Source: Candidatus Dojkabacteria bacterium (GTDB taxonomy: Bacteria; Patescibacteriota; Dojkabacteria; SC72; JAHDCA01). Taken from it: 64,000 nucleotides of DNA. Position 1 is the stretch's first letter; every line of letters begins with the position of its first letter. The translations under genes and the position numbers were made by a program. Positions 27,555 to 50,127 of the stretch are shown one piece after another. The notes below the pieces were generated by a model. It was not told the DNA's origin and did not search any database. It saw only the letters and a list, made by a program, of their open reading frames with translations. The DNA is taken from assembly GCA_030583845.1 (NCBI GenBank), contig CP129478.1, positions 715,686 to 779,685 on the forward strand, given 5' to 3'.

Positions 27555-29156
27555 TTACACAGGAGATTCATGCGATACAAATTCGGAAATGAAAAGCTCC
27601 GACCGATCTTCACTTACTTTGACCAATGCATTTATCTTCGCGACAAGTCGCCCCAACCCGTCAAGGCTGTCGGAGAATCCTTTTGTCTGGCTGGCATAAT
27701 TCCCTTGCTGAATCTGTTGCTCGTAGGACTCCCAAACAGTCGGAGACTTAGCGGTTCTTGGGCTAACTTGGCTAATAGCCTTAAATAGTGACAGTAGAAA
27801 AATCAGTGGTATAAAGCTTCGATTCTCAAGAAAACTTGCGTGGGTCAGCGACTTCTCCGTAAATTCTAAGTAATCCTTCGCAATATTTCTTGCGTAATAG
27901 ACACTTCTTATGTTACTCAACGGGGCAATACTATCCTGATCATTTTCGTAAAGGTGGTCGTGCAAGATGCCATACTGCTCAGTAGCAGCCTCTGTATTGA
28001 AGTGTACACCCAGTAGTTTCTGTGCTTCATCGAGAAACACTTCTGTATATCGTTCTTTTGTAGGGGAGGGCAGAGGGATTATATCGTCAAAAAATTTTGT
28101 GCCACCGAGGAAAGCTTCTCCCTCCATAACCCACTTTTGTTCGTCTTTCGTGAGCATCTTTCCAATTACTTTGCTTAACATATGTTTGTCAAATGCAGTT
28201 ACAACAGTAAGATGGTTGAACTGTGAAAGGTCTTTAGCAATCTTGAGGATGGAAACGAGGTACTGAGCGCGCACATCTCTTTCGATGTCATCAAGGAATA
28301 CATACAGATCAATATGAAATGCCTCGATTACTTCGCTTATTCGCCGTTGTATGTCACTCGAAGACTTGCGCGGGAGCATAGTACTCATCACTTTATATAG
28401 GATCCCGTACTCTGGTTGTATCGTTGAGATTAGCTCTCCGTACTTTGCTAGGTCGGCATAGAGATTAAATCCTGTTTCTCGCTCTATTTCTAAGGCAATT
28501 TTCTCTAAGATCATGGAAAGTATGTCGTTGTAGGTGGTAGCTCCTAGGAAAGATGCGTATATAACTACATTTTTGCTTTGGGTCTGTTGTGGTTTCTTCA
28601 ATCCCTTGATCATCTCAGCAAGGACGAATGACTTCCCGGTACCCCATCCTCCAGTGATAGCGACTGAACTCTTACTAGTGTTCTGGATAGCTGCTAGTGC
28701 TTTGTCTCTAACCTCATCACGATCAAGTTTATCACCGCTCTGGTGAGACTTCAGAAAACTGGATAGATCTACGTCATCTTCATTGAGAGGTCTTTGCTTG
28801 TAACTACTCCCTACAAAGATAGCACCAATACCGAGAACGCCTAAAAGGAAATAATAGAAAATAATTACCGATTCCACATTACCCCCGCTATCGTCTGATT
28901 CCATTTTTGCCTCATAAAATTCAACTACTACCTCAGCGCGGGATTCAATATTTTCATCTAATGTTTGGAGCGCGTCGACAACCTTGTCAGCAGAAAGAAT
29001 TAGTATAATGGAAAGGATAAGACATCCGACAAGCATTCGCACATAAGTATCTACAACTCCTTTAGTTCGAGAATTGAACTTAATAAGGGCAAACAAATGT
29101 TTTGAGTGGTAGCCAAGAAGAGCAAGTATTATAAGCGTGATGAAGAGGTATATCAC
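27555..29156 (-). CDS. KAP-family P-loop NTPase with three N-terminal transmembrane helices
   Basis: Walker A VAITGGWGTGKSFV matches the KAP-signature GxWGxGKS. Walker B is LYVFLDDIERD. Three hydrophobic helices occupy the first 130 aa. The gene starts with GTG. Confidence 0.8.
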   Translation of the reverse strand: MIYLFITLIILALLGYHSKHLFALIKFNSRTKGVVDTYVRMLVGCLILSIILILSADKVVDALQTLDENIESRAEVVVEFYEAKMESDDSGGNVESVIIFYYFLLGVLGIGAIFVGSSYKQRPLNEDDVDLSSFLKSHQSGDKLDRDEVRDKALAAIQNTSKSSVAITGGWGTGKSFVLAEMIKGLKKPQQTQSKNVVIYASFLGATTYNDILSMILEKIALEIERETGFNLYADLAKYGELISTIQPEYGILYKVMSTMLPRKSSSDIQRRISEVIEAFHIDLYVFLDDIERDVRAQYLVSILKIAKDLSQFNHLTVVTAFDKHMLSKVIGKMLTKDEQKWVMEGEAFLGGTKFFDDIIPLPSPTKERYTEVFLDEAQKLLGVHFNTEAATEQYGILHDHLYENDQDSIAPLSNIRSVYYARNIAKDYLEFTEKSLTHASFLENRSFIPLIFLLSLFKAISQVSPRTAKSPTVWESYEQQIQQGNYASQTKGFSDSLDGLGRLVAKINALVKVSEDRSELFISEFVSHESPV

Positions 29157-29369
29157 TTCAGTTGTGGTTAATATTAAGTATTACCTTCCTAATATCACAT
29201 TTGCGGAAAATGGTCTAATGTAGAAAGCCTCGTACTACAGGGTTTATTGACAGGACTATTTGCCTATATTATTCTGAACTATAAATAAAAGCTTTGGAGC
29301 GAGGAATTTCTAATATTGAATAGCTCCGGTTTTCAAGGCTGGTAATTTTAATCTCGACTTTGTTTTTTA

Positions 29370-29978
29370 ATGACTGCCCCAAAAGCAAAGAAAATCTCGC
29401 CGAAGGAGAAGCAATCGGCCACAGTTGATGAGTCGATGAAGAAGCTCTCCGACGAGAAAGGGATTCAATTCGTTGTTTTCGCCCCAGTAAATGCCGATCC
29501 AGATGATGAGGATAGCCGTATCTATATGGTTTGTCCTGCGTCGCTTAAGGTTGTTGAGGTGGTAGAAAAGTCTGGCGAAGAGGCTGATGAGTATCTCACA
29601 CGACTTGGCAAGACGAAGAAGAAGACCGAGCAGTCCTCGTCCACATTTATTGATGATCTAGGAGATGCTGTTGATGTGGATGATAGCTTGGTTCAGGATG
29701 GTAGTGGGTATAGCGCTGCGAAGAAAAAGAATGATGAGGAGGAGGAAGTGGCAGGAGAGCTTGGCAGTTTTGAAGATATTGAAGAGGATGTGGTCGCATT
29801 TGCAAACGACTCGTTGCTTGATATTTTCCCAGATGATGGCACTTCAGGAGATGCTACTTCTGCGGTATCAGATGTGGATATGGCTGATGCACTTGCACTT
29901 CTTGATCAGGATGACGAAGTTGGTGATATTGAGCTGGATGACTTCTCAGACGACGACGGGGAATTACCTTCTCTTTAG
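29370..29978 (+). CDS. Hyper-acidic small protein (DUF1292-like N-terminal core plus an Asp/Glu-rich tail)
   Basis: 202 aa. The core IQFVVFAPVNADPDDEDSRIYMVCPASLKVVEVV resembles DUF1292/UPF0473. The C-terminal 120 aa are roughly 40% D/E. It is divergent from the KAP NTPase. Confidence 0.45.
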   Translation: MTAPKAKKISPKEKQSATVDESMKKLSDEKGIQFVVFAPVNADPDDEDSRIYMVCPASLKVVEVVEKSGEEADEYLTRLGKTKKKTEQSSSTFIDDLGDAVDVDDSLVQDGSGYSAAKKKNDEEEEVAGELGSFEDIEEDVVAFANDSLLDIFPDDGTSGDATSAVSDVDMADALALLDQDDEVGDIELDDFSDDDGELPSL

Positions 29979-30029
29979 TATTCGCAATTTTTCCATGTAT
30001 ATAGTGGTTTCTGTGGTAAACTTCATTAA

Positions 30030-31181
30030 ATGAAGTCAAAACCTATAGCCAAATTCTCAAAGATACGTGTAGCCGTTGTAACCGACTGGATGGCAACTCC
30101 AGGTGGAAGCGACAGGCTTATGGAGCAGCTCTTAAAGCTTTTCCCGCAAGCTGCGATTTTTACGTCGTACTATAATAGAAAAGCCTACCAAGGAACCTTC
30201 GCCGAAAATTATGAGGTCAAAACCTCATTTATCCAGAAGATGCCGTTTGTGAGATCATTGCATCGCCACTACAATGTTTTTACGCCGCTAGCATTTGAGA
30301 GTTTCGACTTTACAGGCTATGACCTGGTAATTTCATTAAGTGCTGGAGCAGCGAAGGGTGTTATTACAAAAGTAGATCAGCCGCATATTTCGATTATACT
30401 GACGCCGCAAAGGTCGCTGTGGGATCAGGAAAGCAATGTGCGAGGGTCACGTTTTCGATTTTTCTACAAGCTCGCTTCACCATTTATAGCGAACTATATG
30501 CGTAGCTGGGATATTGCAGCATTCCAGCGTGCCGACCTGCACCTTTCGATATCGAAATATATTGCAGACAAAGTGCGCAAAGTATATCGAGCCGATTCAG
30601 AGGTGCTATATCCTGGAATCGATGAGTGTTGGTTTGGCAATGAAATGCGAAGGCCTAATCAATATTTGCCAAAATCGTATTTTCTGGTCGTTTCAAGGCT
30701 GTACGATTATAAGCGAATCGACTGGGCGATTGAGGCATGCAAAAAAGCTCGTAAGAATTTGCTTATTGTCGGCGATGGTCCCGACAGAAGATATCTTGAG
30801 AAGAAAGCCGGCAATAGTAAATTCATTAACTTTCTAGGATGGGTAGATGATCTCGAATTGAAGTATCTTTATAAAAATGCCAAGGCCCTAATATTCCCTG
30901 GGGTAGAGGATTTCGGCTATACGCCTATTGAGGCGATGGCACTCGGTACACCCCAAGTCGCACTTCGCGAAGGCGGAGTTAAAGAAACCGTTGTAGAAGG
31001 CAAAACTGGTGAATTTTTCGAGTCTCAAGAAGAATTATGCGAAAAACTCGCCAAATTCAGCAAGCTAAAATATAATGAAAAAGAGATAGTTCGGAACGCA
31101 AAACGCTTTTCAGAAAGCCAGTTTCAGAAAAATTTCATTAAATACCTCAACCAGTTAAAGCTATATGCAGAAGAAAAGTAA
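30030..31181 (+). CDS. GT4 family glycosyltransferase
   Basis: VEDFGYTPIEAMALGTPQVALREGGVKETVVEGKTGEFF is a GT4 motif. Confidence 0.85.
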   Translation: MKSKPIAKFSKIRVAVVTDWMATPGGSDRLMEQLLKLFPQAAIFTSYYNRKAYQGTFAENYEVKTSFIQKMPFVRSLHRHYNVFTPLAFESFDFTGYDLVISLSAGAAKGVITKVDQPHISIILTPQRSLWDQESNVRGSRFRFFYKLASPFIANYMRSWDIAAFQRADLHLSISKYIADKVRKVYRADSEVLYPGIDECWFGNEMRRPNQYLPKSYFLVVSRLYDYKRIDWAIEACKKARKNLLIVGDGPDRRYLEKKAGNSKFINFLGWVDDLELKYLYKNAKALIFPGVEDFGYTPIEAMALGTPQVALREGGVKETVVEGKTGEFFESQEELCEKLAKFSKLKYNEKEIVRNAKRFSESQFQKNFIKYLNQLKLYAEEK

Positions 31182-32319
31182 AGTCGCATTCGTTATACAT
31201 CCGCTATATACATGGGGTGGGGCAGAGGCGATGCTTAGAGATATGATACGAGTTTATCCGAATAGCGATGTGTATACCGCTTGGTACGACAAGAAGATTA
31301 CCGACCAGCTCGGCATAAAAGGAAAAGTATATGCCAGCTACCTCCAAAAATTTCCACTCAAGAAGAAGTTGAGACAGGAGTTAATTCCGCTCCTTCCAAA
31401 GGCCTATAAGAAGATGGTAATCCAGAACTACGACCTCGTCTGGGTTATCTCGGATCAGTTCGAGAAGCAGATCACACTCAGAAATAACAACGTCGAGGTC
31501 TTAAATATCATGACGCCGCCAAGATTTCTCTGGATGGATACCCGCTCTACCGTCAACTTACCAAAGCCAACATATAAAGCGTACAAATCAATAGAAGATA
31601 AGCTGCACCCAAAATGGCAATCAATCGACAAGGCAGCAGTAAAGAGATTCAAATATATCTCCTCGATCTCAAACGATGTCCGCTCACGTGTCGCCAAGAT
31701 CTATGGTGAGTACTCAGAAGTTCTCTACCCCCCAGTCAAGCTCGACCATATCCGCTTCACCAAGAGCATGTCGTCGCGAGAAAAGTGGTTCCTATACCTC
31801 GGCCGGATTGAGAGCTACAAAGGGATCGAGATGCTGATCGAGGCGTGCGCATTCTTGAAGCACCAATTGAAAATTGCTGGAACAGGCAGTGATATCGAGC
31901 GTATGCGCCAACTTGTCGCAGAGCTTGAAGCAACAGACTTAATAGAGATAATGGGGTTTGTATCGGAAGAGCAGAAGCTTGAGCTACTTGAAAAGGCGAG
32001 AGCGCTTGTTTTCCCAGTCAAAGACGAGGACTTTGGCATTGTGCCTATCGAGGCAATGGCCGCAGGCTGTCCGGTGATTGCATTCAATGGTGGCGGTGCA
32101 GCCGAAACGGTTGTGCACGGCAGTACAGGAATACTTTTCGACGACTACACGGCACAAGGCCTAGTAGATGCAATTCATGAATTTGAAATTCATGGCTTTA
32201 AGCCAAATGTAATCCGCTCACACGCACAGGAATTCTCCTACGAACGCTTCGAAAATAAGTTCCGCACCTATGTTGATGCGATAGCGAAAGAGACGTTATC
32301 CAAGCGCGGCGGGCAATGA
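31165..32319 (+). CDS. GT4 family glycosyltransferase
   Basis: DEDFGIVPIEAMAAGCPVIAFNGGGAAETVVHGSTGILF is a GT4 motif. It overlaps the upstream GT4 by 17 nt and uses the only TGA stop in the window. Confidence 0.85.
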   Translation: MQKKSKVAFVIHPLYTWGGAEAMLRDMIRVYPNSDVYTAWYDKKITDQLGIKGKVYASYLQKFPLKKKLRQELIPLLPKAYKKMVIQNYDLVWVISDQFEKQITLRNNNVEVLNIMTPPRFLWMDTRSTVNLPKPTYKAYKSIEDKLHPKWQSIDKAAVKRFKYISSISNDVRSRVAKIYGEYSEVLYPPVKLDHIRFTKSMSSREKWFLYLGRIESYKGIEMLIEACAFLKHQLKIAGTGSDIERMRQLVAELEATDLIEIMGFVSEEQKLELLEKARALVFPVKDEDFGIVPIEAMAAGCPVIAFNGGGAAETVVHGSTGILFDDYTAQGLVDAIHEFEIHGFKPNVIRSHAQEFSYERFENKFRTYVDAIAKETLSKRGGQ

Positions 32320-32948
32320 ATCAGTTAAAAGATCAGGTCATAATCATTAAATCAGTAAACTATTCAGAGGCGGATAAGATCCTCACAGTTTTCGGCCGAA
32401 ATAGAGGGAAATTCAGCATCATCGCCAAAGGCATTCGCAAAATCACCAGCAAAAATCGCGGCAATATGCAGACCTTGTCGGTGACTGAGATCACATATTT
32501 TGAAGGGAAGAACCTGGGGATTTTGAAAGAATCTAATGCGGTCGTGCTGGTGCCGCCAGAGGATATTGATATGGATAGTGCGAAGCGGCTGCTTTTTGTC
32601 TTAAATAAGCTTCTTCCCGAAGCCGTGCCTGAAGAAGAGATATTCGAGATGGCGGTTGGAGTGATAAGTGAAGGTATTAAAGCGGAAGATTTAAACCGCT
32701 TCAGGATAAAGTTCCTACAAAACCTGGGATATATTAATGAGATGAGCCTGTGCAATGTTTGCGGCAAGAAAGTTGGTAAGCAGGACTATCTAGATCCACA
32801 TGCATTTAAGGTGATTTGCGAAAACTGCGCCAGAAATATTAATGAAGTCTCGCGAGCATCGCACATCAGAATTAATGAAATCCCTATCGGCTCAAGTAGA
32901 ATGGGCGAGCTGCTAGATCGAGTAATCGAGCAGGTGCTCCACGCTTAG
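32316..32948 (+). CDS. recO: DNA repair protein RecO
   Basis: The N-terminal OB-fold is VIIIKSVNYSEADKILTVFGRNRGKFSIIAKG. The C-terminus has a Cys4 zinc finger (CNVCGKK...ICENCAR). It overlaps the GT4 stop by ATGA. Confidence 0.8.
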   Translation: MNQLKDQVIIIKSVNYSEADKILTVFGRNRGKFSIIAKGIRKITSKNRGNMQTLSVTEITYFEGKNLGILKESNAVVLVPPEDIDMDSAKRLLFVLNKLLPEAVPEEEIFEMAVGVISEGIKAEDLNRFRIKFLQNLGYINEMSLCNVCGKKVGKQDYLDPHAFKVICENCARNINEVSRASHIRINEIPIGSSRMGELLDRVIEQVLHA

Positions 32949-32949
32949 T

Positions 32950-34143
32950 CTATTCAACAGCTGCGGCCACATCCTCAATTAGCTCTCCCCAAGCCAGATC
33001 CCCTTGCCCAGTACCAAACCGCACTATCACCATATTCTTCTCAGGGAAAACATAAATATATTGCCCAAGATGTCCCCATCCAGCGACGCTGTCCAGATCA
33101 TCCTCTGCATCAGTGAGCCACCATCCGCGATTGTAGTGTAAATCATCACCATACTCAGGCACCGCATTCACCTCATTCATTTCCATCGAGTCCTCGATCC
33201 ATTCAGATGAGATCAGCTGCTCACCATCCCATTCGCCTTTGTCTTGCACCAGTACTCCCAGCTTGGCGAAATCAATTGCACGAGCATTGATGCCACTCTC
33301 CATCTTTGTCATACCACCCTGCTCACTGTCGAGGCTCCACGAGCCCTCATACTCCATGCCTAGTCTGCTCCAAAGCTTCTGCTCGAAATACTCATACGCC
33401 TTCATCCCGGTAGCCTCCTCCAAGATCATGCCCAGAAGGATCGGGTTGTAGCTATTGTATTGAAACTCCTCGCCCGGCTCACCTGTGACCTGCAGGCTCA
33501 TGACATGAGTCCGGAGATCTGGGTGGTAGTATGCTTTCGGCTTATCTCCCCAAGGGAGATCGTGATCCGCAAATTCGATCCCAGATTTCATCGAGAGCAG
33601 GTCCTCGATTGTCACATCTTGATAATCTGGGTCGGTGTCTGAAAGCTCTGGTAGATATTTCGTAACAGGATCGTCTAGGCTTTCGATTGCACCCTCTTCG
33701 ATTGCGACTCCGATCATTAGGGCAGTAATTGACTTCGCAGTAGAGAAAGATGTGTTAATTGAGGTGCGCTCATATTCATTAAAATACTCCTCGTAGATAA
33801 TCTTGCCATCCTTGACCACAATGAAGGCTGTAGTATCGTTCTCCTCCAAGAGGCGGTCTAATTCGACTTCGCTCCCCTGCTGTTCAAATTTCTGCTCGCC
33901 AAGTGACTGATCATCTGCTACCTCAAGGTAGTAGGGTGAGTCGCTTGCTATAAAGGTAGCTGCAGGGAATTTCTTGTAATCCTCAACATCTGACGCCTTC
34001 CAGGCAAACCATCTGCCGATGTATGTGTCGGTGCGGGTGGTGAGGTATAGATATGTCGTAAATAGTCCAACAAGCAGAACTGTCAGAACGGAAAAGGCGA
34101 TTATGGTTTTCTTCGCTTTGATCATACTAGTATCAGTATACAA
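32950..34143 (-). CDS. Membrane-anchored serine hydrolase of the beta-lactamase/PBP4 (class C-like) family
   Basis: N-terminal transmembrane helix. S-x-x-K active-site motif FSTAKSITALMIG. 397 aa. Confidence 0.75.
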   Translation of the reverse strand: MYTDTSMIKAKKTIIAFSVLTVLLVGLFTTYLYLTTRTDTYIGRWFAWKASDVEDYKKFPAATFIASDSPYYLEVADDQSLGEQKFEQQGSEVELDRLLEENDTTAFIVVKDGKIIYEEYFNEYERTSINTSFSTAKSITALMIGVAIEEGAIESLDDPVTKYLPELSDTDPDYQDVTIEDLLSMKSGIEFADHDLPWGDKPKAYYHPDLRTHVMSLQVTGEPGEEFQYNSYNPILLGMILEEATGMKAYEYFEQKLWSRLGMEYEGSWSLDSEQGGMTKMESGINARAIDFAKLGVLVQDKGEWDGEQLISSEWIEDSMEMNEVNAVPEYGDDLHYNRGWWLTDAEDDLDSVAGWGHLGQYIYVFPEKNMVIVRFGTGQGDLAWGELIEDVAAAVE

Positions 34144-34295
34144 CTTCTGAAATAGCTGTTGAATAAAGCGGAAAATGCTTATATAATTGCTACGACCATC
34201 CCGCCACGCCAGCTTATAATATGCTTAGTACATCTGTAAAGATTTTCTAAGGCGATAAGTTAGCGTAGCGGGACAGGCAAACCCCATTTGTATGT

Positions 34296-34368
34296 GGGCC
34301 AGTAGCTCAATTGGTAGAGCAAGCGACTCTTAATCGCTAGGTTCTGGGTTCGATTCCCAGCTGGCTCA
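34296..34368 (+). tRNA. tRNA-Lys (anticodon CUU)
   Basis: Cloverleaf read by hand. Acceptor stem GGGCCAG/CTGGCTC (one G-U pair). D-arm GCTCAATTGGTAGAGC. Anticodon stem AGCGA/TCGCT with loop CTCTTAA (U33, anticodon CTT, A37). T-arm CTGGGTTCGATTCCCAG. Discriminator A. No encoded CCA. Confidence 0.85.
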
Positions 34369-34369
34369 T

Positions 34370-34400
34370 TTTGTAATACCACCATTGGTGATATTACAAA
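34370..34400 (+). terminator. Strong hairpin immediately 3' of tRNA-Lys (9-bp perfect stem TTTGTAATA/TATTACAAA plus an inner imperfect stem); no U-tract
   Basis: Inverted repeat tttgtaataccaccattggtgatattacaaa. The only T-run (TTTT) precedes rather than follows the stem. The element may be a processing or termination structure. Confidence 0.35.
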
Positions 34401-34410
34401 ATGAATGAGT

Positions 34411-34455
34411 GAAATTGAACCCAAGGTTCGTGAGGACGCATCCCACGCATGCAAG
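34411..34455 (+). repeat. Copy 1 of a ~45-nt conserved motif containing the hairpin core GTGAGGA-CGCA-TCCCAC
   Basis: gaaattgaacccaaggttcgtgaggacgcatcccacgcatgcaag lies 25 nt upstream of the DKNYY gene start. It is near-identical to the copy at 35726..35770. Confidence 0.6.
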
Positions 34456-34479
34456 AAATAATAATGAAGATTTAGATAT

Positions 34480-35685
34480 ATGAATATATTCTCAAATCTA
34501 TCCAAAAGAGTTTCTCGAACAAATGGGAAGATATCAAGTTTAGACAGAAGCCAGAAGCTACTAATCTTCGCCGCACTTTTCGTATTCATTGCATTGATAA
34601 TTACTCCTCTGGGAGATCTCTACTTTAATAAACCTGAGAAGCCACAAGAGAGTACTTCTATAAAGACGAAGAAAAGCTGCTCGGTCTACGAGACAGAATC
34701 GATCGTGCCGCAGGCAGATGGCCAAAGTGTAGAAAGTGAAACTATCGCTAAAGATTTTACACGCAAATATGCTCCATCCGACTGCCAATTTTCCCCGGAG
34801 ATTAGTATCGCATCGTTAGATACTGCTAGCTGTGAAAGGATTTCAACACACGTTATTGTAGATAAAAACAATGTATATAAATGGCAATATGATCCTGGTA
34901 GCTCGAATTACTCAACATATATTGTTGTAGAGGAAGCAGATGCGGAAAGCTTCACAAATCTGTATTGGAATTATTATAAGGATAATACAAATTTGTATTA
35001 CGATACTGGAGAGAACCTGAGCATAGTAGATCAAATCAACCTGGAGTCTGTAGAGGTTCTTTCTGCGAGTTATATTAAGGATAAAAACGGAGTCTATTAC
35101 GTCAGCTTCTCTGATGGTGAAGTAGATATTAGGCCAATACCTGGCTTTGATACTGCAACCTTTGCGGTTGTACAAAATCAGCACAATATACAGACATATT
35201 TTAAAGATAGGAATGGCGTATATTATTTCGGTTCGCAAGAAGCTGATCTTACACCTTCGGAAACAGTAATAAGTGAGGCGGATGTTGATACATTTATTGT
35301 TCTAAATACATATCTCTTGGCGAAAGATAAGAGCCATGTTTATTATGAGGGTATAGTAGTCCCAAGTGTAGATGCAGAGGCATTTGAAGAGCTTGGTGGC
35401 GGCTATTATAGGGATAGATCTAATGTTTATACAACAGGCATGAATAGGGCAGATTTTGAACCTCTCGACGATAGCGATCCGTGTACATTTGAATTGCTTG
35501 GTTATACTAGCGATTCAAATTGGTCGGGATATGCAAAAGACGAAAATCAAGTCTATTATCTCGGATCGGTAGTAGTCGGGGCTGACGCTGAAACTTTTCA
35601 AACAACACACTCCCAAGGGGTTTATGGAGGCTATGATAAAAACTACAGGTATCAGGGGAAGTATAGGCTGGAGGAACTTGAATAA
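34480..35685 (+). CDS. DKNYY-repeat family putative lipoprotein or secreted protein
   Basis: N-terminal transmembrane or signal helix. Seven D(K/R)N-x-VY(Y) repeats are spaced about 45 aa apart (DKNNVYKW, DKNGVYYV, DRNGVYYFG, DKSHVYYEG, DRSNVYTTG, DENQVYYLG, DKNYRYQG). Confidence 0.7.
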   Translation: MNIFSNLSKRVSRTNGKISSLDRSQKLLIFAALFVFIALIITPLGDLYFNKPEKPQESTSIKTKKSCSVYETESIVPQADGQSVESETIAKDFTRKYAPSDCQFSPEISIASLDTASCERISTHVIVDKNNVYKWQYDPGSSNYSTYIVVEEADAESFTNLYWNYYKDNTNLYYDTGENLSIVDQINLESVEVLSASYIKDKNGVYYVSFSDGEVDIRPIPGFDTATFAVVQNQHNIQTYFKDRNGVYYFGSQEADLTPSETVISEADVDTFIVLNTYLLAKDKSHVYYEGIVVPSVDAEAFEELGGGYYRDRSNVYTTGMNRADFEPLDDSDPCTFELLGYTSDSNWSGYAKDENQVYYLGSVVVGADAETFQTTHSQGVYGGYDKNYRYQGKYRLEELE

Positions 35686-35725
35686 GCCCTGTTGATTCCC
35701 AGATATTACTTCTGCAGAGTGATCT

Positions 35726-35770
35726 CATTCAAAACCATCGGTTCGTGAGGATGCATCCCACAAATGTAAT
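35726..35770 (+). repeat. Copy 2 of the ~45-nt conserved motif (hairpin core GTGAGGA-TGCA-TCCCAC)
   Basis: cattcaaaaccatcggttcgtgaggatgcatcccacaaatgtaat lies 41 nt after the DKNYY stop and about 170 nt upstream of the Ldh_2 gene. Confidence 0.6.
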
Positions 35771-35937
35771 GAGTGGCAGATGTGACGTCATACTGAGTCG
35801 ATTGAGGTCTGCGAGCGCAGTGAGCAGATACCGAAATGAGACGTAGTGATTCTCAGCTTTCTATCTAACACACTGTCTTTGCCAAGCCAATTGGTTTATA
35901 ATTGGCTGGGATCCACATAAACTATTATCTCTAATCA

Positions 35938-36918
35938 ATGAAGGTCAAACTTACGGATTTAGAATCACTCGTATCTAAGGCATTGCTCAAATATGGATAC
36001 TCGGAAGAAGAAGCGAAAGTCATCCAGAAGATCCTCCTATTTGCCCAGCTCCGAGGAAACAACCAGGGGGTAGTAAAGTTGATAGGAAACGGTATACCTC
36101 GCAATCCTGAAGGAGTAGCTCCAACAATTGAAAAAGAGACTCCCGTCTCAGCATTAGTAAATGGTAATAGTACCCATGCAATGGTTGTAATGGATATGCT
36201 TGTGGATATTGCGATTGGGAAGGCAGAGAAGTCAGGAATTGGAATCGCGGGTAATTACAATGGAGATGCTTCGACAGGGGCGATAGGTTACTACGTAAAC
36301 AGGATAGCCGAGAAGGGATTAATAGGTATAGCATTTGCCTCAGCTCCATTTCAGACCACCGCACCATACGGCGCAACTGAGGCTAAATTTTGCACAAACC
36401 CAATGGCTTACGGTATCCCGACAGAGGGTGACCCGATCATTTTGGATATGTCTACTTCAACTATGGCCTATTACGGTTTAATTGAAGCGGAAACGGCGGG
36501 GAAAGATGTACCAGAGGGTACTGGTTATGATAAGGACGGAAAGGAAACGACCGATCCTGCAGAAATAATGTCCGGTGCATTAAAAACTTTTGGTGGTCAT
36601 AAAGGATCGGGCCTCGCACTAATAGTGCAGATCTTCGCTGGGGCATTAGTAAATGCAGATTCGTTTAACAATGATAGTGAAAATGCTGGAAATTTGGTTA
36701 TTGCGATTGACCCGGCAATCTTCTTGACTCAAGATGATTTCAAAAAGAGGGTGTCAGAGATCGTAGCAAATGTGAAATCAGCGAGAAAGCTGGAAGGTGT
36801 CGATGAGATCCTGATTCCAGGCGAGCGGGGTAATAAGGTTATGGAATCAGCTATGAAGAGAGGGGAGATCGAGATAGAGGAAAATCTATATAAAGAGTTA
36901 ATGGCAGTTGCTAAGTAA
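35938..36918 (+). CDS. Ldh_2 family (malate/L-lactate/sulfolactate-type) NAD(P)-dependent dehydrogenase
   Basis: 326 aa. FGGHKGSGLALIVQIFAGAL is the family-typical GHKG motif, and overall length and composition fit PF02615. Confidence 0.7.
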   Translation: MKVKLTDLESLVSKALLKYGYSEEEAKVIQKILLFAQLRGNNQGVVKLIGNGIPRNPEGVAPTIEKETPVSALVNGNSTHAMVVMDMLVDIAIGKAEKSGIGIAGNYNGDASTGAIGYYVNRIAEKGLIGIAFASAPFQTTAPYGATEAKFCTNPMAYGIPTEGDPIILDMSTSTMAYYGLIEAETAGKDVPEGTGYDKDGKETTDPAEIMSGALKTFGGHKGSGLALIVQIFAGALVNADSFNNDSENAGNLVIAIDPAIFLTQDDFKKRVSEIVANVKSARKLEGVDEILIPGERGNKVMESAMKRGEIEIEENLYKELMAVAK

Positions 36919-36924
36919 TTTCAT

Positions 36925-37347
36925 TTGAGAAACATGAAAAGCCACCTTTATCACATCCAACTCAACATCGACTTCGCCAACCGAGACTTCTACAAAGAGC
37001 TAATGGAGTTCATGGGCTGGAGCGTGATCTTTGAGAAACCAGAATCCACAATCGGATTTCGAAGTGAGACCAACGGCGACCTCTGGTTTATACACGCTGA
37101 TCATCAAGAGGATACTGATTACGACGCAAGAGGGATGAACCACATCGCTATCCGTGTCGAGAATCAAGCCGATATCAACCAGATTCAAGCTCACCTAGAA
37201 AGTAACGGTGTGAAGATGCTTTTCGGTACGCCACTGCACAGACCAGAGTTTGCAAGCAAAGAGGGTGAGACCTATTACCAGATTATGTTTGAGTCACCGG
37301 ATAAGATCTTGTGGGAGATAGTGTATATCGGAGCAAAGTGTGGGTAG
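36925..37347 (+). CDS. VOC (glyoxalase/bleomycin-resistance/dioxygenase) superfamily protein
   Basis: 140 aa. It contains HIQLNI...HIAIRVEN beta-alpha-beta-beta-beta module signatures. Confidence 0.55.
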   Translation: MRNMKSHLYHIQLNIDFANRDFYKELMEFMGWSVIFEKPESTIGFRSETNGDLWFIHADHQEDTDYDARGMNHIAIRVENQADINQIQAHLESNGVKMLFGTPLHRPEFASKEGETYYQIMFESPDKILWEIVYIGAKCG

Positions 37348-37389
37348 ATTCTATTAATCGCAGCTGTAGAAAGTCAACTTGTAGAAATA

Positions 37390-38102
37390 TGGGAGAAAAG
37401 ATGAAATACGAAAAGTACAATCTAGTAGATGAGGTGGAGAAGATCTCAGATCACCTGAAGGTGTGGGGTAAATTTGGGTGGAAGGAGATGGACGGTGATT
37501 TCACCAAAAAAGAGTGGAAGCAGGACGACATGTACGAAGAATATTGCTGTGATTTGCAACGGGATATTACCCCTGCTACGAAAAAACTCAGTGAGATAGA
37601 AGGCCGATACATCAAACTCCAAAAAGAAATTAATAGGTCAATATGGACTGAGCTAGCAGGGAAGCCGAAATGGTCTAAGTCAGTCTCGAATCTACTTGGA
37701 TGCAGCGGTCTGATAGTTGCTTTCGTGCTGTCCTGGCTAATTAGTACCCTCTTAATCGGTCTGATCGCAAGCTCGACCTCATTTGAGCACGTTGGAGTCC
37801 CATACGCCTGTCTGCTGATACTAAATTTCATACTGATTATCTCGGCTTTCCTATTCATTGACATCAGAATTCGGAAGGGCAAAATCAGAAGACTTAGGCC
37901 GCGTGCTAAGGCGATGTACAATGAAGACAAAGAGATAGTTAGAAAAAGAGCTGAATTGAAGTATCTACTCGGAGAACTCAAGAAGCTTTCATATGAACAA
38001 AAGGAAATAGATCACTACTTTAAGTACCGTGTTGAGTTCAGTGAAGTTGGCTACGGTTTCCCACTCTACACATTCGAGTACTACGACACAGACTCGCTCT
38101 AA
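37390..38102 (+). CDS. Hypothetical membrane protein (two TM helices, charged coiled-coil flanks)
   Basis: The ORF-track entry 37311..38102 begins inside the VOC gene. The first plausible start is ATG 37390 (MGEKMKYEKY...). Transmembrane helices lie around LIVAFVLSWLISTLLIGLI and ILNFILIISAFLFI. Confidence 0.4.
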
Positions 38103-38157
38103 AGCCCCTCGCTAAGCCTCTCCCTACTAATCACCGCATCATCGCAAAGAACTCTTA

Positions 38158-38991
38158 CTACCGTGGTTTCTCTCCCGAAAACACTCCATACTCCAGCACA
38201 CCTTTCTCAATCAAAAACTTACTATTCCTCGCCGACACCGTATGTCCAAGCGATCCATAGGTCAGCCTAGCCTTCTCCAGCAAATAGATCACAGGCAACA
38301 TGATTGTCCCATATCGATAGTAGATATCTAAAGTCTTCTTTACCCCCTCATTCTTACTGTCAAACTTAACATCCTTAAACCCCACAGACTCCATATCCTC
38401 ATGGAATCTCTCCTTAAACGCCAGATTATCCAGCGCAAACCCATCCAGAAATTCTTTATAAACTTTCTCCTCTTTTACGGAGAGCTTCTCTTTGATCCTA
38501 TACGCATCCAGCACTGCTACCCTGCCTTTTGGTCGGAGTAGTCGGTACGCCTCCTTCAGGAAATCCCGCTTATCAATTGCATAGCAAACACTTTCTATGC
38601 CAAAAATCTTGTCGAACGAACCATCCTCAAATTTCGTGTCGGTGTAATCCCGTAACAGAAATTTAACTCTGTCTGCTGCTGGTGAACCAGCTGCATACTG
38701 TTCAGCAAGCGAAAGCTGTGAAGGTACTACAGTTATCCCAGTAACCTCTGTATCAAATCCCTCTGCGATCATCAATGAAGTCCCCCCGACACCGCACCCT
38801 GCATCAAGCACCTTGTCCCCATCCTTCACCTGCAAAGCCTTAATTACAACTCTACTCGTATTTAATGACGCATCTTTGTACTCGGTAATTCCTTCTTCCC
38901 AGATAGGATAGTGCAAATGGCGCACATTGCGATAGAATATATTCTTTGAGTAGTAATCGTTGATTGGATCTTCTGAGAGTCTTATCTCCAT
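38158..38991 (-). CDS. Class I SAM-dependent methyltransferase (CFA-synthase/CMAS-like family)
   Basis: Motif I VLDAGCGVGGTSLMIAE. The post-I motif is EVTGITV. The probable start is MEIRLSEDPINDYYSKN. The ORF-track start at 39063 lies further upstream. Confidence 0.7.
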   Translation of the reverse strand: MEIRLSEDPINDYYSKNIFYRNVRHLHYPIWEEGITEYKDASLNTSRVVIKALQVKDGDKVLDAGCGVGGTSLMIAEGFDTEVTGITVVPSQLSLAEQYAAGSPAADRVKFLLRDYTDTKFEDGSFDKIFGIESVCYAIDKRDFLKEAYRLLRPKGRVAVLDAYRIKEKLSVKEEKVYKEFLDGFALDNLAFKERFHEDMESVGFKDVKFDSKNEGVKKTLDIYYRYGTIMLPVIYLLEKARLTYGSLGHTVSARNSKFLIEKGVLEYGVFSGEKPR

Positions 38992-39167
38992 ATGAGATAT
39001 AGTACATTTTTTTAACAGAATTGTCGCCGTATCAGCTTCCTGACTGATGTCACCTATTATCACAGGTGGTGATTCTAGCCAGTCATATCAAATATTTATG
39101 CATAGTAAATCACTTAACGCACCCATACCTACCCCCTTCGCCCTTGATAGAGTAAAATAGTACTCAC

Positions 39168-40787
39168 ATGAACCAGAAACTCAAAATCTTCACAATCGTA
39201 ATGGCCCTTGGAACATTCGTGGTTGTCCTCGACAACACCATAATGAATGTCTCCATCCAGGCTCTCGTCCAAGACCTCAACACCACAGTAACTGGCGTCC
39301 AGACAGCGATCGCGTTAAACGCACTCATGATGGCGGCGTTTGTGCTTTTCGGCGGGAAGCTTGCCGACATTATCGGCATGAAGAAGACATTTATGACGGG
39401 TGTGCTGATCTATATCGCGGGAAGTCTCACTGCTTCATTTAGCAACAATCTGGGGGTATTCATACTTGGATGGTGTCTGATACAAGGGTTTGGGGCGGCG
39501 ATGATGCTGCCAAATGTGCAGACACTTATCCGTGCTGTACTGCATGGGGAGGCTAGGGCGAAGGCATATGGCGCAATGGCGGCAGTGAATGCAATCGCTG
39601 CAGCATTGGGGCCAGTGATCGGTGGCTTCTTGACGACATATTTCTCGTGGAGATGGGCATTCCGTATGGAGGTAGCTTTCCTGCTCTTCATCCTGGTGAT
39701 GAATCACTATATACCTAAAGATAAAGCGATTACGAAGAAGGTCGGTATCGATGGGTGGGGACTCGTACTTCAGGCTGGAGCCATGGTTTCGATTGTGCTT
39801 GGTATCTTGATGATCTCAGACTACGGTGCATTTATGGCAAAGCAGCCGGTGATTATTAACGGCATAAATATTACTGAAATGGGATTGGGGCTCTCGCCGG
39901 TCGTATGGCTGGTAGGTCTCGGCTTGGTGTTGCTAATGCTATTTATCCATGTAGAGAACAGCAAGCTTGAGAAAGGGAAGCCTTCGCTCGTGCATGTGGC
40001 GCTGTTCAAAATCCGTGATTTTGTGACAGGCTTGAAGGTAAGGAGCATGCAGGTATTTCTCGTAGCTGGAATACTCTTCTCGATGCCGCTTTTCTTGCAG
40101 GTGACTTTTGAGATATCGGCCTTTGAGACTGGCTTAGCTTTGTTACCGCTATCAATTAGCCTGGTGATCGGATCGTTTATCGGTGTGCGCATGGCCAAGA
40201 AATATCTGCCGAAAAATATTGTGCGGCTTGGAGCACTGATAGTGATGGCTGGATCGGTGATCTTAATGGCTCTGGTTACAAATAGTAGCGAGCCTGCAGA
40301 GATCGGGCTCGGCTTGATAGTATTTGGATTTGGCCTCGCGTTGATTGGCTCACAGATCGTGAACCTGATCCTCTCATCGGTCACGCCGAAGGAGACAGCC
40401 GAGGCATCTGGAATTACCAGCACTCTTGAGCAGCTTGGCAATTCTCTTGGTGTAGCAATCCTTGGATCGGTCTTAGTTGTAGCGCTTTCATTTTCACTAA
40501 CCCAGCAGCTAAATGCCGACACAAGCCTGCCTGCTGATATCCGTGAGAAAGCCCAGGCAGCTGTAAATGATGGGGTGGAGATCCTTTCAAATTCTCAAAT
40601 CGAAGAGCAGCTCTCTGATCTAGACCCAGAAGTTGAAGAGCAGGTACTGCAGATGTATGATAGCGCGCGCACAAATGCATTTAGGGTTACAATGTTGAGC
40701 GTGGGCTTTATTGGGCTATTGATGTTTATAACGGCAGCATCCTTGCCGGAGCGGAAGTTGGTTGAGGGGATGGAGAATTCGGCTTAG
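39168..40787 (+). CDS. MFS transporter, DHA2 (EmrB/QacA, 14-TMS) family
   Basis: 539 aa. The N-terminus MALGTFVVVLDNTIMNVSIQAL and motif A-like GKLADIIGMKK. It has 14 hydrophobic segments. Confidence 0.85.
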   Translation: MNQKLKIFTIVMALGTFVVVLDNTIMNVSIQALVQDLNTTVTGVQTAIALNALMMAAFVLFGGKLADIIGMKKTFMTGVLIYIAGSLTASFSNNLGVFILGWCLIQGFGAAMMLPNVQTLIRAVLHGEARAKAYGAMAAVNAIAAALGPVIGGFLTTYFSWRWAFRMEVAFLLFILVMNHYIPKDKAITKKVGIDGWGLVLQAGAMVSIVLGILMISDYGAFMAKQPVIINGINITEMGLGLSPVVWLVGLGLVLLMLFIHVENSKLEKGKPSLVHVALFKIRDFVTGLKVRSMQVFLVAGILFSMPLFLQVTFEISAFETGLALLPLSISLVIGSFIGVRMAKKYLPKNIVRLGALIVMAGSVILMALVTNSSEPAEIGLGLIVFGFGLALIGSQIVNLILSSVTPKETAEASGITSTLEQLGNSLGVAILGSVLVVALSFSLTQQLNADTSLPADIREKAQAAVNDGVEILSNSQIEEQLSDLDPEVEEQVLQMYDSARTNAFRVTMLSVGFIGLLMFITAASLPERKLVEGMENSA

Positions 40788-40801
40788 TTGCCTCGACTGC
40801 G

Positions 40802-41303
40802 ATGAATAGATTTACTGTAGTATTCCTACTAGACAAAAAGTATTCAAAGCTGGTGCTGCTCAAAAGAGCCTCCTGGATGAGCTTTGCCCCGAACCGATGC
40901 ACAGGGATTGGGGGGGAGCGTTGAGCCTGGTGAGGATTATCCTGAGGGTGCATTGAGAGAGCTTGAAGAGGAAACCGGAATAAAGAGTAGCGACATAGAA
41001 GAGTTCAGAATGATCGGCTTATTTACATTCAAGGGAGGAAAAGGCACTTACTGGGAGAATGGCTATGAGATCGGTTATTTCGATGCGACCTATTCACATG
41101 CCGATCTACCCCCTTGCAATGAAGGCGATATAAGCTGGGTTGGACTAGATCAACTCGATTCTCTTGATATTCTTGACGATACAAAGGCAGCGATTGAGCT
41201 TTTTAAAGAGGAAGTGTTTGGCAAGGTGATTGAGTCACCCTATGTTGGAGAGTTTCTTGAATCGGGAAGGGGTTGTACGGATACAATTCTGCTTGCTAAC
41301 TAG
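40802..41303 (+). pseudogene. Nudix hydrolase interrupted by a frameshift at a G7 homopolymer (40910..40916)
   Basis: Frame A from ATG 40802 encodes MNRFTVVFLLDKKYSKLVLLKRAS...GIGG and runs into TGA. The +1 frame after the G-run carries the Nudix box GSVEPGEDYPEGALRELEEETGI and the rest of the domain. Changing the run by one G joins the two frames. Confidence 0.6.
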
Positions 41304-42625
41304 TTAGTCGATGGGGCGAGTATAAGATTTGTGGTTGTTGGCACATCCGAAGTGTTGTACACAATCAAGTAGCTTCTCACTTGCGCTGGCAAATTGAAGG
41401 CTTCACCATAGCGTAATATTCTCACTCCTTCCGGTTGTACGATTACGACGATATTTTCCGGATCTGTTCCTGAATAATACAATCCCTGCAACCCGGCTAG
41501 ATCTACTATCCCGTTACGCTCTGCTGGCAAAGTGACTTGGTAAACTCCATCCGAACGCCATTCAGGAGAGAGCACAGGCATGATCACTGAAAACGGTTCC
41601 TCCAATGGTGGATACCACCACCTATCAGGCGATAGGTTTCTTTGCAGATGTAGTGCTATACGAATTGCATGCAACTCTTCTAAAGTGGTTGCGCTTTGAA
41701 ATATATGGTCTTCTGGTGCGAGCTCTTTCAGAGCTGCCAAAAGATAATTTACATAACCCATCTGATAGTAAGACTGAGCGAGGAATGGATATTGCAACAG
41801 CGTCTTAATATCAGGGATACCAGGTGTACCACGTGAGTAAGCAGCATCGACAAAGATTGTCCAGGATCCATAATCTGCATATGCGAAGCTGTCAGTACGC
41901 GGAACACATCCAGACTCGTTGCATACTGTGTTGTATAAGCCATCGTAGTATCTCAGGTAGTTCGGGCTTTTATTCAGGTAGTTCAATTCAACTTGCATCA
42001 TATATAGCATCGTCATAGCTGTGCTCCAAGACTCTTGGCCGTTTTCATTCCCTGCTGACATATCGTGGAATGGTGGTCCATATTGCATCAGGTATCTATG
42101 GCCTAGTTCGTGGACAAGGACATGCTGTATGATATCCCCCATGGCAAACTCGTTTAGCGACAAAGTGATGTCGGCTCCATATGCGCCAGGCTCGCCTTTG
42201 AAAGCTGCACTGCCGCTCACTGCTTGATCATGTAAGATGAAAATCTTGGTTGTGCCATCTTGGTCGGCAGTGAGAGCAAACCCCATACCTTTGAGCCAAC
42301 TATTAAAATGGTCTGCAGTCTCAGTTATTGTTGCAATCTGCTCGGCAGAAAGTATTGTCTGCTCAGTGCCTTCTGCGGATATTGGTATGTGAAGCTTGAA
42401 CTGCCCAGATGGGCTGAGAACCTCGGTGTAGTTAGGGTTGGCCTCAAACCAGTCAATAGCGGTTTGACTATAATGTGTTCGTTCAGTTGTTGACTGCTCG
42501 CCTAACTCTGTTGCCGGCTGATTCGGTGGCTTTTGTTGTGAGTCACTACAGCCAGCCAATGCAATACCCAGCGCTGCAGTAATTAGAAAACGGCCTTTAT
42601 TCATGTATTGAGGGAACTTAATCAA
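41300..42625 (-). CDS. Zinc metalloprotease lipoprotein (HExxH), family unassigned
   Basis: Lipobox signal ITAALGIALAGCSD. HExxH motif HVLVHELGHRY. 441 aa. It overlaps the 3' end of the Nudix gene by 4 nt on the opposite strand. Confidence 0.55.
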   Translation of the reverse strand: MIKFPQYMNKGRFLITAALGIALAGCSDSQQKPPNQPATELGEQSTTERTHYSQTAIDWFEANPNYTEVLSPSGQFKLHIPISAEGTEQTILSAEQIATITETADHFNSWLKGMGFALTADQDGTTKIFILHDQAVSGSAAFKGEPGAYGADITLSLNEFAMGDIIQHVLVHELGHRYLMQYGPPFHDMSAGNENGQESWSTAMTMLYMMQVELNYLNKSPNYLRYYDGLYNTVCNESGCVPRTDSFAYADYGSWTIFVDAAYSRGTPGIPDIKTLLQYPFLAQSYYQMGYVNYLLAALKELAPEDHIFQSATTLEELHAIRIALHLQRNLSPDRWWYPPLEEPFSVIMPVLSPEWRSDGVYQVTLPAERNGIVDLAGLQGLYYSGTDPENIVVIVQPEGVRILRYGEAFNLPAQVRSYLIVYNTSDVPTTTNLILAPSTN

Positions 42626-42779: not shown

Positions 42780-43547
42780 CTAATATTTGGCGAAATTTCG
42801 CATCGCTAAAGATGAGACACTCATCTCCGTCTCTTCGAGATACTTGTCTAGTCCGCTTCTGTTGATAAATTTACGAATCCTATCCTTAGCCTCCAACCCA
42901 GAGATTACAGAGGTTGTTTTAACTTCCAACCCACTTTCAAAATCCCTGATCATATCGATAGTAATCTCAAATTGTTCGTAGCTGTACAGTTTTCGGGTCT
43001 TCACTATTGTTACGAACTCCTTAAAGCTCATAAGGGTTAGAAGGCTATGAGTATTCTCATAATCGTCAACAGCAATCTCTTTTTCTAGAGTGGTTTCCTT
43101 TTTATATGGCTCTGCAAGTCGTTTCACACCGAGAGTCGTAATAATGCTGTCCTTATAACCAATCCGTTGCTCACGTATCCTTACTCCCTGTCCTTTGCCG
43201 GTCTCAAACCAGATACTCGTATGAGTACTATCGTTTATATCATTTGGCACATACCAGTGATCTGTTAACTCACCATTGTAGAGTAGTTTTGACCCTATCT
43301 TAATTAATATGTTTTCAATGGTTATGAGGTCAGTACATTTATAACGTAGCTCAATTGTAATCTCTTCGCTTACTGGTTCTTGATTTGCTACAAATCTATC
43401 AAGCTCTGACTGGTGGATTCTAACGTTATGTCCAAACTTTATAGCTGTTATGTCGCCATTCTTTATATAATTGCGTATAGTCTGCCAGTGAACCTTAAGG
43501 TACAGAGCGGCCTCCTTAATTGTGAGGAGCTTATCACTATTTATCAT
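42780..43547 (-). CDS. Fusion protein: N-terminal excisionase/MerR-type HTH DNA-binding domain plus C-terminal CYTH (CyaB/thiamine-triphosphatase-like) domain
   Basis: HTH: LTIKEAALYLKVHWQTIRNYIKNGDITAIKFGHNVRI. CYTH: EITIELRYK (ExExK-like start), basic RIRE, and the C-terminal acidic beta-strand motif FEITIDMIRDFESGLEVKT. Confidence 0.55.
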   Translation of the reverse strand: MINSDKLLTIKEAALYLKVHWQTIRNYIKNGDITAIKFGHNVRIHQSELDRFVANQEPVSEEITIELRYKCTDLITIENILIKIGSKLLYNGELTDHWYVPNDINDSTHTSIWFETGKGQGVRIREQRIGYKDSIITTLGVKRLAEPYKKETTLEKEIAVDDYENTHSLLTLMSFKEFVTIVKTRKLYSYEQFEITIDMIRDFESGLEVKTTSVISGLEAKDRIRKFINRSGLDKYLEETEMSVSSLAMRNFAKY

Positions 43548-49965: not shown

Positions 49966-50127
49966 AAATATTACTTGATTGATTTACATTAGCTACTCCA
50001 TAGTACGGAATCCTTAAATAAATGTCACGTATTTATTATCTGTGTGACCAGGAAGCGGATTCACACTTGTTGTATACGATCATCCCTAGTGCTAATATCA
50101 ATCAGTAATCTGTCCAAACCACCTGAC

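Follow-up and report, generated by a model that had tools for sequence, protein, structure and literature searches.

In a 64,000-nucleotide (nt) stretch of a Candidatus Dojkabacteria bacterium genome (contig CP129478.1, positions 715,686 to 779,685 of the forward strand; the window hereafter), a gene of the DKNYY family lies between an intact tRNA-Lys gene and a gene of the Ldh_2 family, and it is bracketed by two copies of a short double-hairpin motif. Block alignment and chaining identify the motif copies as the best-preserved block of one longer direct duplication of about 85–110 nt, which covers the 3' end of tRNA-Lys and the trailer that follows it. We think there is about an even chance that the locus is a duplication-flanked single-gene insertion at tRNA-Lys, or the remnant of one, which would make it an ordinary insertion or duplication scar. 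The DKNYY gene was probably inserted or otherwise acquired. The features that carry this reading are as follows.

34296..34368, + strand: tRNA-Lys gene (anticodon CTT), intact, with no encoded CCA (ARAGORN; 73.2 bits with the Rfam tRNA model)
34344..34454, + strand: left copy of the long direct repeat, consisting of the T arm of tRNA-Lys, the acceptor 3' strand, the trailer hairpin, GATATTAC, GAGTGA, and the double-hairpin motif (block alignment, collinear chain)
34418..34446, + strand: motif copy 1, double hairpin AACC-CAA-GGTT, C, GTG(A)GGA-CGCA-TCCCAC, with its core at 34425-34446 (repeat search, folding, covariance model)
34480..35685, + strand: DKNYY-family gene, 401 amino acids with an N-terminal membrane anchor (Pfam PF13644), the sole gene between the repeats
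35688..35769, + strand: right copy of the long repeat, decayed, consisting of CCT-GTT-GATTCCCAG (the T-arm fragment, 35688-35702), GATATTAC, GAGTGA, and the double-hairpin motif, and lacking about 30 nt (block alignment, chaining)
35733..35761, + strand: motif copy 2, double hairpin AACC-ATC-GGTT, C, GTG(A)GGA-TGCA-TCCCAC, with its core at 35740-35761 (repeat search, folding, covariance model)
35938..36918, + strand: Ldh_2 family oxidoreductase gene, the resident gene on the right (Pfam PF02615)

The motif copies belong to a longer direct repeat

The window has exactly two occurrences of the 22-nt core of the motif, GGTTCGTGAGGAYGCATCCCAC, which lie on the + strand at 34425-34446 and 35740-35761 and differ from each other at one position. 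With up to three mismatches allowed, the same two sites were the only ones found in the 64 kb, and none of 100 shuffled sequences gave any match, so we rejected a chance origin for the core repeat. A repeat search extended the similarity to 37 nt without gaps (34418-34454 versus 35733-35769, 81% identity); the spacing from repeat to repeat is 1315 nt. An earlier reading of this region from its letters (the original prediction) had described a 45-nt motif whose copies share about 36 of 45 positions and lie 25 nt upstream and 41 nt downstream of the gene. The motif is indeed repeated, but the copies share 31 of the 45 positions, the gaps are 24 and 40 nt, and the repeat is longer than 45 nt, reaching back to the T arm of tRNA-Lys.

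The evidence for the longer repeat comes from the 47 nt that separate the stop codon of the DKNYY gene from motif copy 2. This spacer contains three blocks, GATTCCCAG (35694-35702), GATATTAC (35702-35709), and GAGTGA (35717-35722), and all three recur in unchanged order between the tRNA-Lys T arm and motif copy 1 (at 34352, 34390, and 34407). The first of them is T-arm sequence of tRNA-Lys, and its only two sites in the window are the T arm itself and the position 9 nt past the DKNYY stop. GTT-GATTCCCAG, at 35691-35702, matches the T arm GTTCGATTCCCAG at 12 of 13 positions, on the same strand and downstream of it. The full collinear chain has 23 matched bases; among 5000 dinucleotide shuffles just 2 did as well, and among 1703 other segments of the window just 1. 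Taken alone, the T-arm block was equaled in 153 of 20,000 shuffles of the 47-nt spacer; for the trailer chain, the count was 47 of 20,000. When aligned by these blocks, the two copies are 70% identical across 86 aligned columns, with one 30-nt gap in the right copy directly after GATTCCCA; the deletion on the right covers the upper part of the trailer hairpin as well as the acceptor 3' strand. On the strength of these alignments, we consider the duplication, its extent, and the deletion in the right copy to be established.

A possible single-gene insertion at tRNA-Lys

An intact tRNA gene, followed by an island and then by a displaced fragment of the tRNA gene, is the published signature of insertion at a tRNA gene, in which the incoming DNA restores the gene (PMC4383910). 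At this locus, circular or otherwise incoming DNA would have carried the DKNYY gene together with a copy of the tRNA-Lys 3' end and trailer. It would have recombined with the resident tRNA-Lys locus, either by site-specific recombination in the tRNA gene or by a single homologous (Campbell-type) crossover. The outcome would be a functional tRNA at the left and, displaced to the right, a copy of its end that no longer serves a purpose and that would then decay and lose about 30 nt. The tRNA-Lys at 34296..34368 is most likely the regenerated or intact target at the left end. We infer the insertion, its direction, and the mechanism of recombination.

Several properties of the DKNYY gene and its surroundings fit an insertion. 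First, its composition is atypical: the G+C content is 0.391 overall and 0.341 at third codon positions (GC3), as compared to window means of 0.439 and 0.460 (± 0.060 for GC3), and its GC3 is the second-lowest among the 49 open reading frames (ORFs) of the window. Second, it has no close orthologue. Its best homologues elsewhere are 45–49% identical and lie in unrelated contexts, without the motif; the flanking RecO and Ldh_2 proteins have relatives at 68–79% identity (71% and 68% for RecO, 72–79% for Ldh_2). Third, the gene fills the interval between the repeats almost exactly, with 24 nt before its start codon and the T-arm fragment beginning 3 nt past its stop codon. We also counted the variability of the locus around tRNA-Lys in relatives, together with the differing neighbors of Ldh_2, as favoring insertion (see below).

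Other observations weigh against an insertion or against the repeat on which it depends. We found no integrase, recombinase, or transposase among the Pfam matches of the window's main ORFs (the scan covered all ORFs of at least 120 amino acids except overlapping ones; SecA and a glycosyltransferase were annotated separately). At 1.3 kb the insert is small, what is left of the tRNA is a short internal piece (12 of 13 nt), and the similarity runs 85 nt past the end of the tRNA, which is unusual for identity between attP and attB. No strain or relative with an empty site was found, and all four contigs from the same species share the arrangement. Furthermore, the three blocks were first spotted by eye and the statistics were computed afterwards. 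Window-wide, the 9-mer GATTCCCAG is one of many (BLASTN E = 20), so its weight comes only from its position. MAFFT alone did not recover the block alignment and misplaced the gap, and local alignment of the flanks with ordinary gap costs was not significant; the homology is visible only in a chaining test that tolerates a 30-nt deletion. Finally, one block is permuted. ACAAA(A)TG(A/T)AATGAGTG lies upstream of motif copy 1 but downstream of motif copy 2, and AATGAGTG has only two sites on the + strand of the window.

34396..34411, + strand: ACAAAATGAATGAGTG, upstream of motif copy 1 (repeat search; partner of 35760-35775)
35760..35775, + strand: ACAAATGTAATGAGTG, downstream of motif copy 2 (repeat search; partner of 34396-34411)

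The permuted order of this block stays unexplained.

One of three explanations offered by the original prediction was that the motif copies are att-like repeats left by a small insertion at a tRNA gene. This is the best supported of the three, in modified form: instead of a 45-nt motif beyond the tRNA, the repeat is a stretch of about 85–110 nt that starts in the T arm, with about 30 nt lost from the right copy, and there is no integrase. The 85-nt extension beyond the tRNA fits a single crossover of a circle that carried the tRNA end, trailer, and DKNYY gene, or a local segmental duplication, at least as well as it fits an integrase reaction.

The same duplication evidence would be expected if there had been no foreign insertion at all: tRNA-Lys and its trailer would have been duplicated in tandem, the DKNYY gene would have come to lie between the copies, and the second tRNA would have decayed to a T-arm fragment. 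Similarity that continues far into the trailer fits such a segmental duplication better than it fits an att core. However, the 5' two-thirds of the second tRNA would have to have been removed exactly up to 3 nt past the DKNYY stop codon, and the DKNYY gene is compositionally atypical and has no close orthologue in the database. We therefore consider this history quite improbable.

Comparison with known integrating elements

We compared the locus to tRNA-integrated islands as defined by Islander, which requires a length of 2–200 kb and rejects anything below 2 kb (PMC4383910). As in such islands, there is an intact tRNA-Lys(CTT) at one end (34296-34368, 73.2 bits); a fragment of the 3' half of the same tRNA lies downstream at the far end in direct orientation, which is weak evidence by itself; and the DNA in between is compositionally atypical and lineage-specific. 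Unlike in such islands, the fragment is internal and lacks the acceptor 3' strand, DKNYY is the sole gene inside and no tyrosine integrase accompanies it, the length is 1.3 kb (spacing of 1315 nt), and the repeat continues about 85 nt past the end of the tRNA. Because of the missing integrase, the 1.3-kb size, the internal fragment, and the similarity beyond the tRNA, we did not file the locus as a tRNA-integrated island; it is not a canonical one.

A Campbell-type insertion is another close parallel. Integration of a circle by a single crossover in about 100 nt of homology leaves direct repeats on both sides of the cargo and needs no dedicated recombinase gene. For this locus it is purely inferred: no circular form, donor, or empty site was seen, and the permuted AATGAGTG block is not predicted by it.

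There are also resemblances to integron cassettes and their attC sites, including clusters that lack an integrase. A single ORF that seems to have no promoter of its own is tightly bracketed (24 nt on one side, 3–47 nt on the other) by similar imperfect palindromes that have an unpaired base, variable loops, and fixed stems. But an attC site forms one hairpin of 57–141 nt with RYYYAAC and GTTRRRY core sites, whereas the motif forms two short hairpins in 29–37 nt; its GTTCGTG does not fit GTTRRRY, and its flanks are derived from a tRNA. Also unlike in an integron, no integrase was found among the ORFs scanned in the 64 kb, and two copies are not an attC array. Similarly, the ends of IS200/IS605-type insertion sequences, their derivatives, and repetitive extragenic palindromic (REP) elements have subterminal imperfect palindromes on the same strand at both ends, and the motif copies share this property, along with the same predicted bulged hairpin at each end and the lack of inverted terminal repeats. 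The stems are much shorter than in those elements; within the 64-kb window, no tnpA, tnpB, or RAYT gene was found and there are just two copies.

Differences between the motif copies lie in the loops

Either copy of the motif can be folded into two small hairpins, AACC-N3-GGTT and GTG(A)GGA-YGCA-TCCCAC. The copies differ at four positions of this 29-nt double hairpin, and each of these belongs to one of the two loops, with no change in the stems or at the bulged A (P = 0.0015). Conservation is also higher in the 22-nt core than in the remainder of the duplicate (2873 of 100,000 permutations, P about 0.03). That the loops alone have changed hints at some constraint on both copies of the double hairpin, which may then be a DNA site for a binding protein or a structured RNA element of the tRNA trailer. 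The evidence for constraint is thin, as there are just two copies with no compensatory change between them and the hairpins are weak. Their predicted stability is at the level of shuffled sequences (z = -0.77 and +0.24). Because tyrosine recombinases need identical overlap regions, the loop differences also speak against an active pair of sites with crossing over within these palindromes.

As a tentative alternative, whatever the origin of the two copies, the double hairpin could be a working cis element that selection has kept at both places, which would be compatible with duplication. One possibility is an operator bound by a dimeric protein (AACC-N3-GGTT plus GTGAGGA-N4-TCCCAC); another is a structured RNA that lies in the tRNA trailer or DKNYY leader at one end and in the DKNYY 3' region or Ldh_2 leader at the other. 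Besides the placement of the differences and the conservation of the core, the orientation fits, as both copies are on the coding strand of all the flanking genes. The positions do not: from the end of the double hairpin, it is 33 nt to the DKNYY start but 176 nt to the Ldh_2 start, and a perfect TATAAT (35897-35902) lies between motif copy 2 and the Ldh_2 gene. Neither copy is followed by a U-tract. The motif has no match in Rfam (E up to 10), and it is absent upstream of the Ldh_2 or DKNYY genes in all of the relatives that we examined. The original prediction had suggested a shared operator or RNA hairpin before two successive genes. The confinement of differences to loops agrees with that suggestion; the unequal distances, the intervening TATAAT, and the relatives do not; such an element may still have been layered on the duplication.

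More specific roles were tried and rejected. A scan for sigma-70 promoters found none at the motif; by eye, TGTAAT follows copy 2 at a distance of 5 nt, where copy 1 has TGCAAG instead. The scan likewise showed no intrinsic (Rho-independent) terminator-like site at either copy; CCCAC is followed by GCATGCAAG in copy 1 and by AAATGTAAT in copy 2. A known RNA family, a tRNA pseudogene, or a riboswitch is not indicated either: in a search of Rfam 15, only tRNA passed, and nothing was reported at the motif copies even at E up to 10. An 18-codon ORF, MSEIEPKVREDASHACKK (34405-34461), spans copy 1, and read in this frame the one difference between the cores is synonymous (GAC/GAT); the ORF is probably meaningless, as copy 2 lacks a corresponding start codon. 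Lastly, a LexA (Cheo) box would have to be read from GAAC-N5-GTTC in copy 1 and AAAC-N5-GTTC in copy 2, but these do not have the spacing of such a box, and the genes do not belong to the SOS response.

Searches for further copies of the motif

We scanned the window with a covariance model of both hairpins, as had been proposed together with folding. The two copies scored 52 and 51 bits and the next best hit just 11 bits (E above 1), so the model singles out these two sites; the folding, as described above, gave hairpins no more stable than those of shuffles. Within its own genome, the search for copies covered the 64-kb window, which is about 6% of the 1.04 Mb. Applied to twelve loci of relatives (113 kb in total), the model had no hit. 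A search pattern in which 19 bases were fixed gave no true match among 185,579 species genomes; its one chance match is inside a GC-rich coding region of a deltaproteobacterium and lacks the flanking AACC. The strict motif had no match in the JGI metagenomes, and neither did the 5' half of tRNA-Lys in the metagenome scan. In IMG/VR, a relaxed pattern gave five matches, all unrelated, and no relative of DKNYY and no tRNA-Lys 3' end was found there. Nothing similar to the motif DNA turned up in phage and plasmid collections, and with nothing relevant in IMG/VR either, we rejected a phage or plasmid origin.

These searches bear on whether the motif belongs to a lineage-specific family of small dispersed or mobile repeats, such as REP elements, miniature inverted-repeat transposable elements (MITEs), hairpin ends of the IS200/IS605 type, or the ends of cassettes that are handled as single-stranded hairpins. 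Two members of the family would then happen to flank the DKNYY gene or would have been brought there. What such a family might leave is a single gene flanked on either side by direct, same-strand imperfect palindromes in which the bulged base is conserved, and also variable loops on fixed stems; the searched part of the genome is small. Yet there are two copies in 64 kb with nothing else above 11 bits, none in the 113 kb from relatives, and no true match in the species genomes, metagenomes, IMG/VR, phages, or plasmids; no transposase was found among the window ORFs that were scanned. In addition, the flanks of the motif are homologous and tRNA-derived, as expected of a segmental duplicate and not of independent insertions. 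The dispersed repeat in the original prediction thus finds no support in the 64-kb window, in the loci of relatives, or in the public collections, and we consider it unlikely.

In the most speculative reading, the 29-nt double hairpin, with its fixed stems, fixed bulged A, and free loops, would be a recombination site that is recognized as folded DNA. It would delimit cassettes of one gene each, mobilized in trans in Dojkabacteria or other bacteria of the Candidate Phyla Radiation (CPR) by an integron-like or HUH-like system that uses the tRNA-Lys trailer as a docking site. We regard this as very improbable.

Strains and relatives

The Ldh_2, DKNYY, and RecO proteins encoded in the window have identical counterparts at NCBI from a metagenome-assembled genome of Candidatus Dojkabacteria. 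Four Logan assemblies carry the locus, one at 100% identity and three at 98.2–98.7%, and both motif copies are present in all of them. Since the arrangement is identical in four independent assemblies, we rejected an assembly artefact. Strains that lack the segment 34456..35725 had been proposed as a check, but all four same-species contigs carry it. The comparison of strains is uninformative for the motif, as 33–37 kb is nearly identical among them.

Across 29200-41700 of the window, strain divergence is a mosaic: about 3.7% in 29.5–33 kb and about 3% in 37.0–37.5 kb, with only five strain differences in 33–37 kb (positions 33947, 35858, and 35880 among them). This pattern suggests a recent recombination or sweep of the segment with tRNA-Lys, DKNYY, and Ldh_2. 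The strains also differ in gene content. A gene for a KAP-family P-loop NTPase (27555-29156, - strand; region 27558-29216) is absent from one strain contig of 98.7% identity (L002), in which another gene comes almost directly after SecA, so this NTPase shows strain-level presence and absence.

In more distant relatives, the left side of the locus is partly preserved. The two RecO relatives (L022 and L023) keep the upstream order of SecA, a hypothetical gene, two glycosyltransferases, and RecO. In L023, tRNA-Lys comes directly after RecO, across a 342-nt spacer (L023 7178-7519), without the beta-lactamase-fold gene that lies between RecO and tRNA-Lys in the window (32950-34143, - strand). Because L023 lacks this gene, we consider the surroundings of tRNA-Lys to be variable in the lineage. 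The L023 contig ends inside the tRNA and the L022 contig just after RecO, so in both closest relatives the contig breaks at or just before tRNA-Lys. The promoter region of tRNA-Lys, GCTTATATAATTGC(T/A)ACGACCAT, is conserved between the window and L023.

On the right side, the neighbors of Ldh_2 differ in all six relative loci that we examined (L009-L012, L024, and L025). None of these six has the motif, and their upstream regions have no homology to the spacer in the window, so the motif is not tied to Ldh_2 genes. Nor is it tied to DKNYY genes generally, as the three closest DKNYY loci (45–49% identity) lack it. In the closest Ldh_2 relative (79% identity), a tRNA-Glu(TTC) with a trailer hairpin lies upstream of Ldh_2 (L009 5640-5713, L010 549-622). 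We asked if the spacer before Ldh_2 in the window could be a decayed tRNA-Glu as in L009, and rejected this, as it has no sequence support and no detectable homology. In L011, a large serine recombinase (8051-9055; Resolvase, Recombinase, and zinc-ribbon domains) lies about 1 kb downstream of Ldh_2 and an IstB-like gene about 2.4 kb downstream, so mobile DNA near Ldh_2 does occur in the group.

The tRNA-Lys trailer and other features of the window

The original prediction had placed a tRNA-Lys followed by a strong hairpin beside the DKNYY gene. ARAGORN and Rfam agree on the tRNA, and the hairpin is real, with 19-nt arms that are 95% complementary. A second inverted element lies just beyond it.

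34366..34404, + strand: trailer hairpin with 19-nt arms, running from the tRNA's last TCA to a TGA (repeat search, 95% complementary; fold z = -4.5)
34413..34423, + strand: AATTGAACCCA, inverted copy of the T arm TGGGTTCGATT (34345-34355) (DNA folds, z = -5.2 and -6.5)

AATTGAACCCA is the left flank of motif copy 1 and overlaps motif hairpin 1, and it pairs with TGGGTTCGATT as an 11-bp outer stem around the 19-bp trailer hairpin. As AATTGAACCCA is the reverse complement of the T arm, motif hairpin 1 is the junction between an inverted copy of the T arm and a direct GGTTCG. Judging by sequence, the whole trailer (about 85 nt) is built of pieces that resemble the tRNA end, and the long hairpin is itself an inverted copy of that end. 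The 3' half of tRNA-Lys is predicted to be able to fold together with its trailer (34338-34432) into a long hairpin of two tiers, the outer stem of 11 bp and the inner of 19 bp, which would be in competition with the cloverleaf. The tRNA-Glu in L009 is likewise trailed by a hairpin that runs from its final TCA to TGA, which suggests that this is a common style of trailer in the lineage.

Pfam confirmed the families of both proteins (PF13644, E = 1.7e-38 for DKNYY; PF02615, E = 2.4e-82 for Ldh_2). The DKNYY protein had been called a lipoprotein. Its family assignment stands, but the lipoprotein label is not supported: the translation has a hydrophobic anchor at residues 27–44, and its first cysteine is C67, in the context K-K-S-C, with no lipobox. 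The spacer before Ldh_2 (35686-35937, 252 nt) is 44% G+C, as compared to roughly 30–40% in most spacers of the window. It includes a 9-bp hairpin at 35885-35907, and its fold is not clearly better than those of shuffles (z = -1.75). Elsewhere in the window, an ORF at 49463-49978 is unusual in composition (GC 0.547, GC3 0.273) and matches no Pfam family; it may not be a real gene in that frame. A protein encoded at 42780-43547 (- strand) joins an excisionase-type HTH_17 domain to a CYTH domain; nothing evident connects it to the repeats, which are 7 kb away.

Implications

The repeat is real, and we regard its origin as mostly accounted for. The pattern of substitutions in the loops is the only part of these results that could point further than a scar, for example to a conserved cis element of tRNA trailers or to a recombination site, and it rests on two copies. 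If the motif were a recombination site that marks mobile cassettes, it would represent a cassette system of an integron-like or HUH-like kind that has not been described for Dojkabacteria or CPR bacteria. If the locus is an insertion scar at tRNA-Lys, then the region around this tRNA would be a variable spot in the lineage, and the locus would show in a compact and clean form how single genes for surface proteins enter streamlined CPR genomes at a tRNA locus without a resident integrase.

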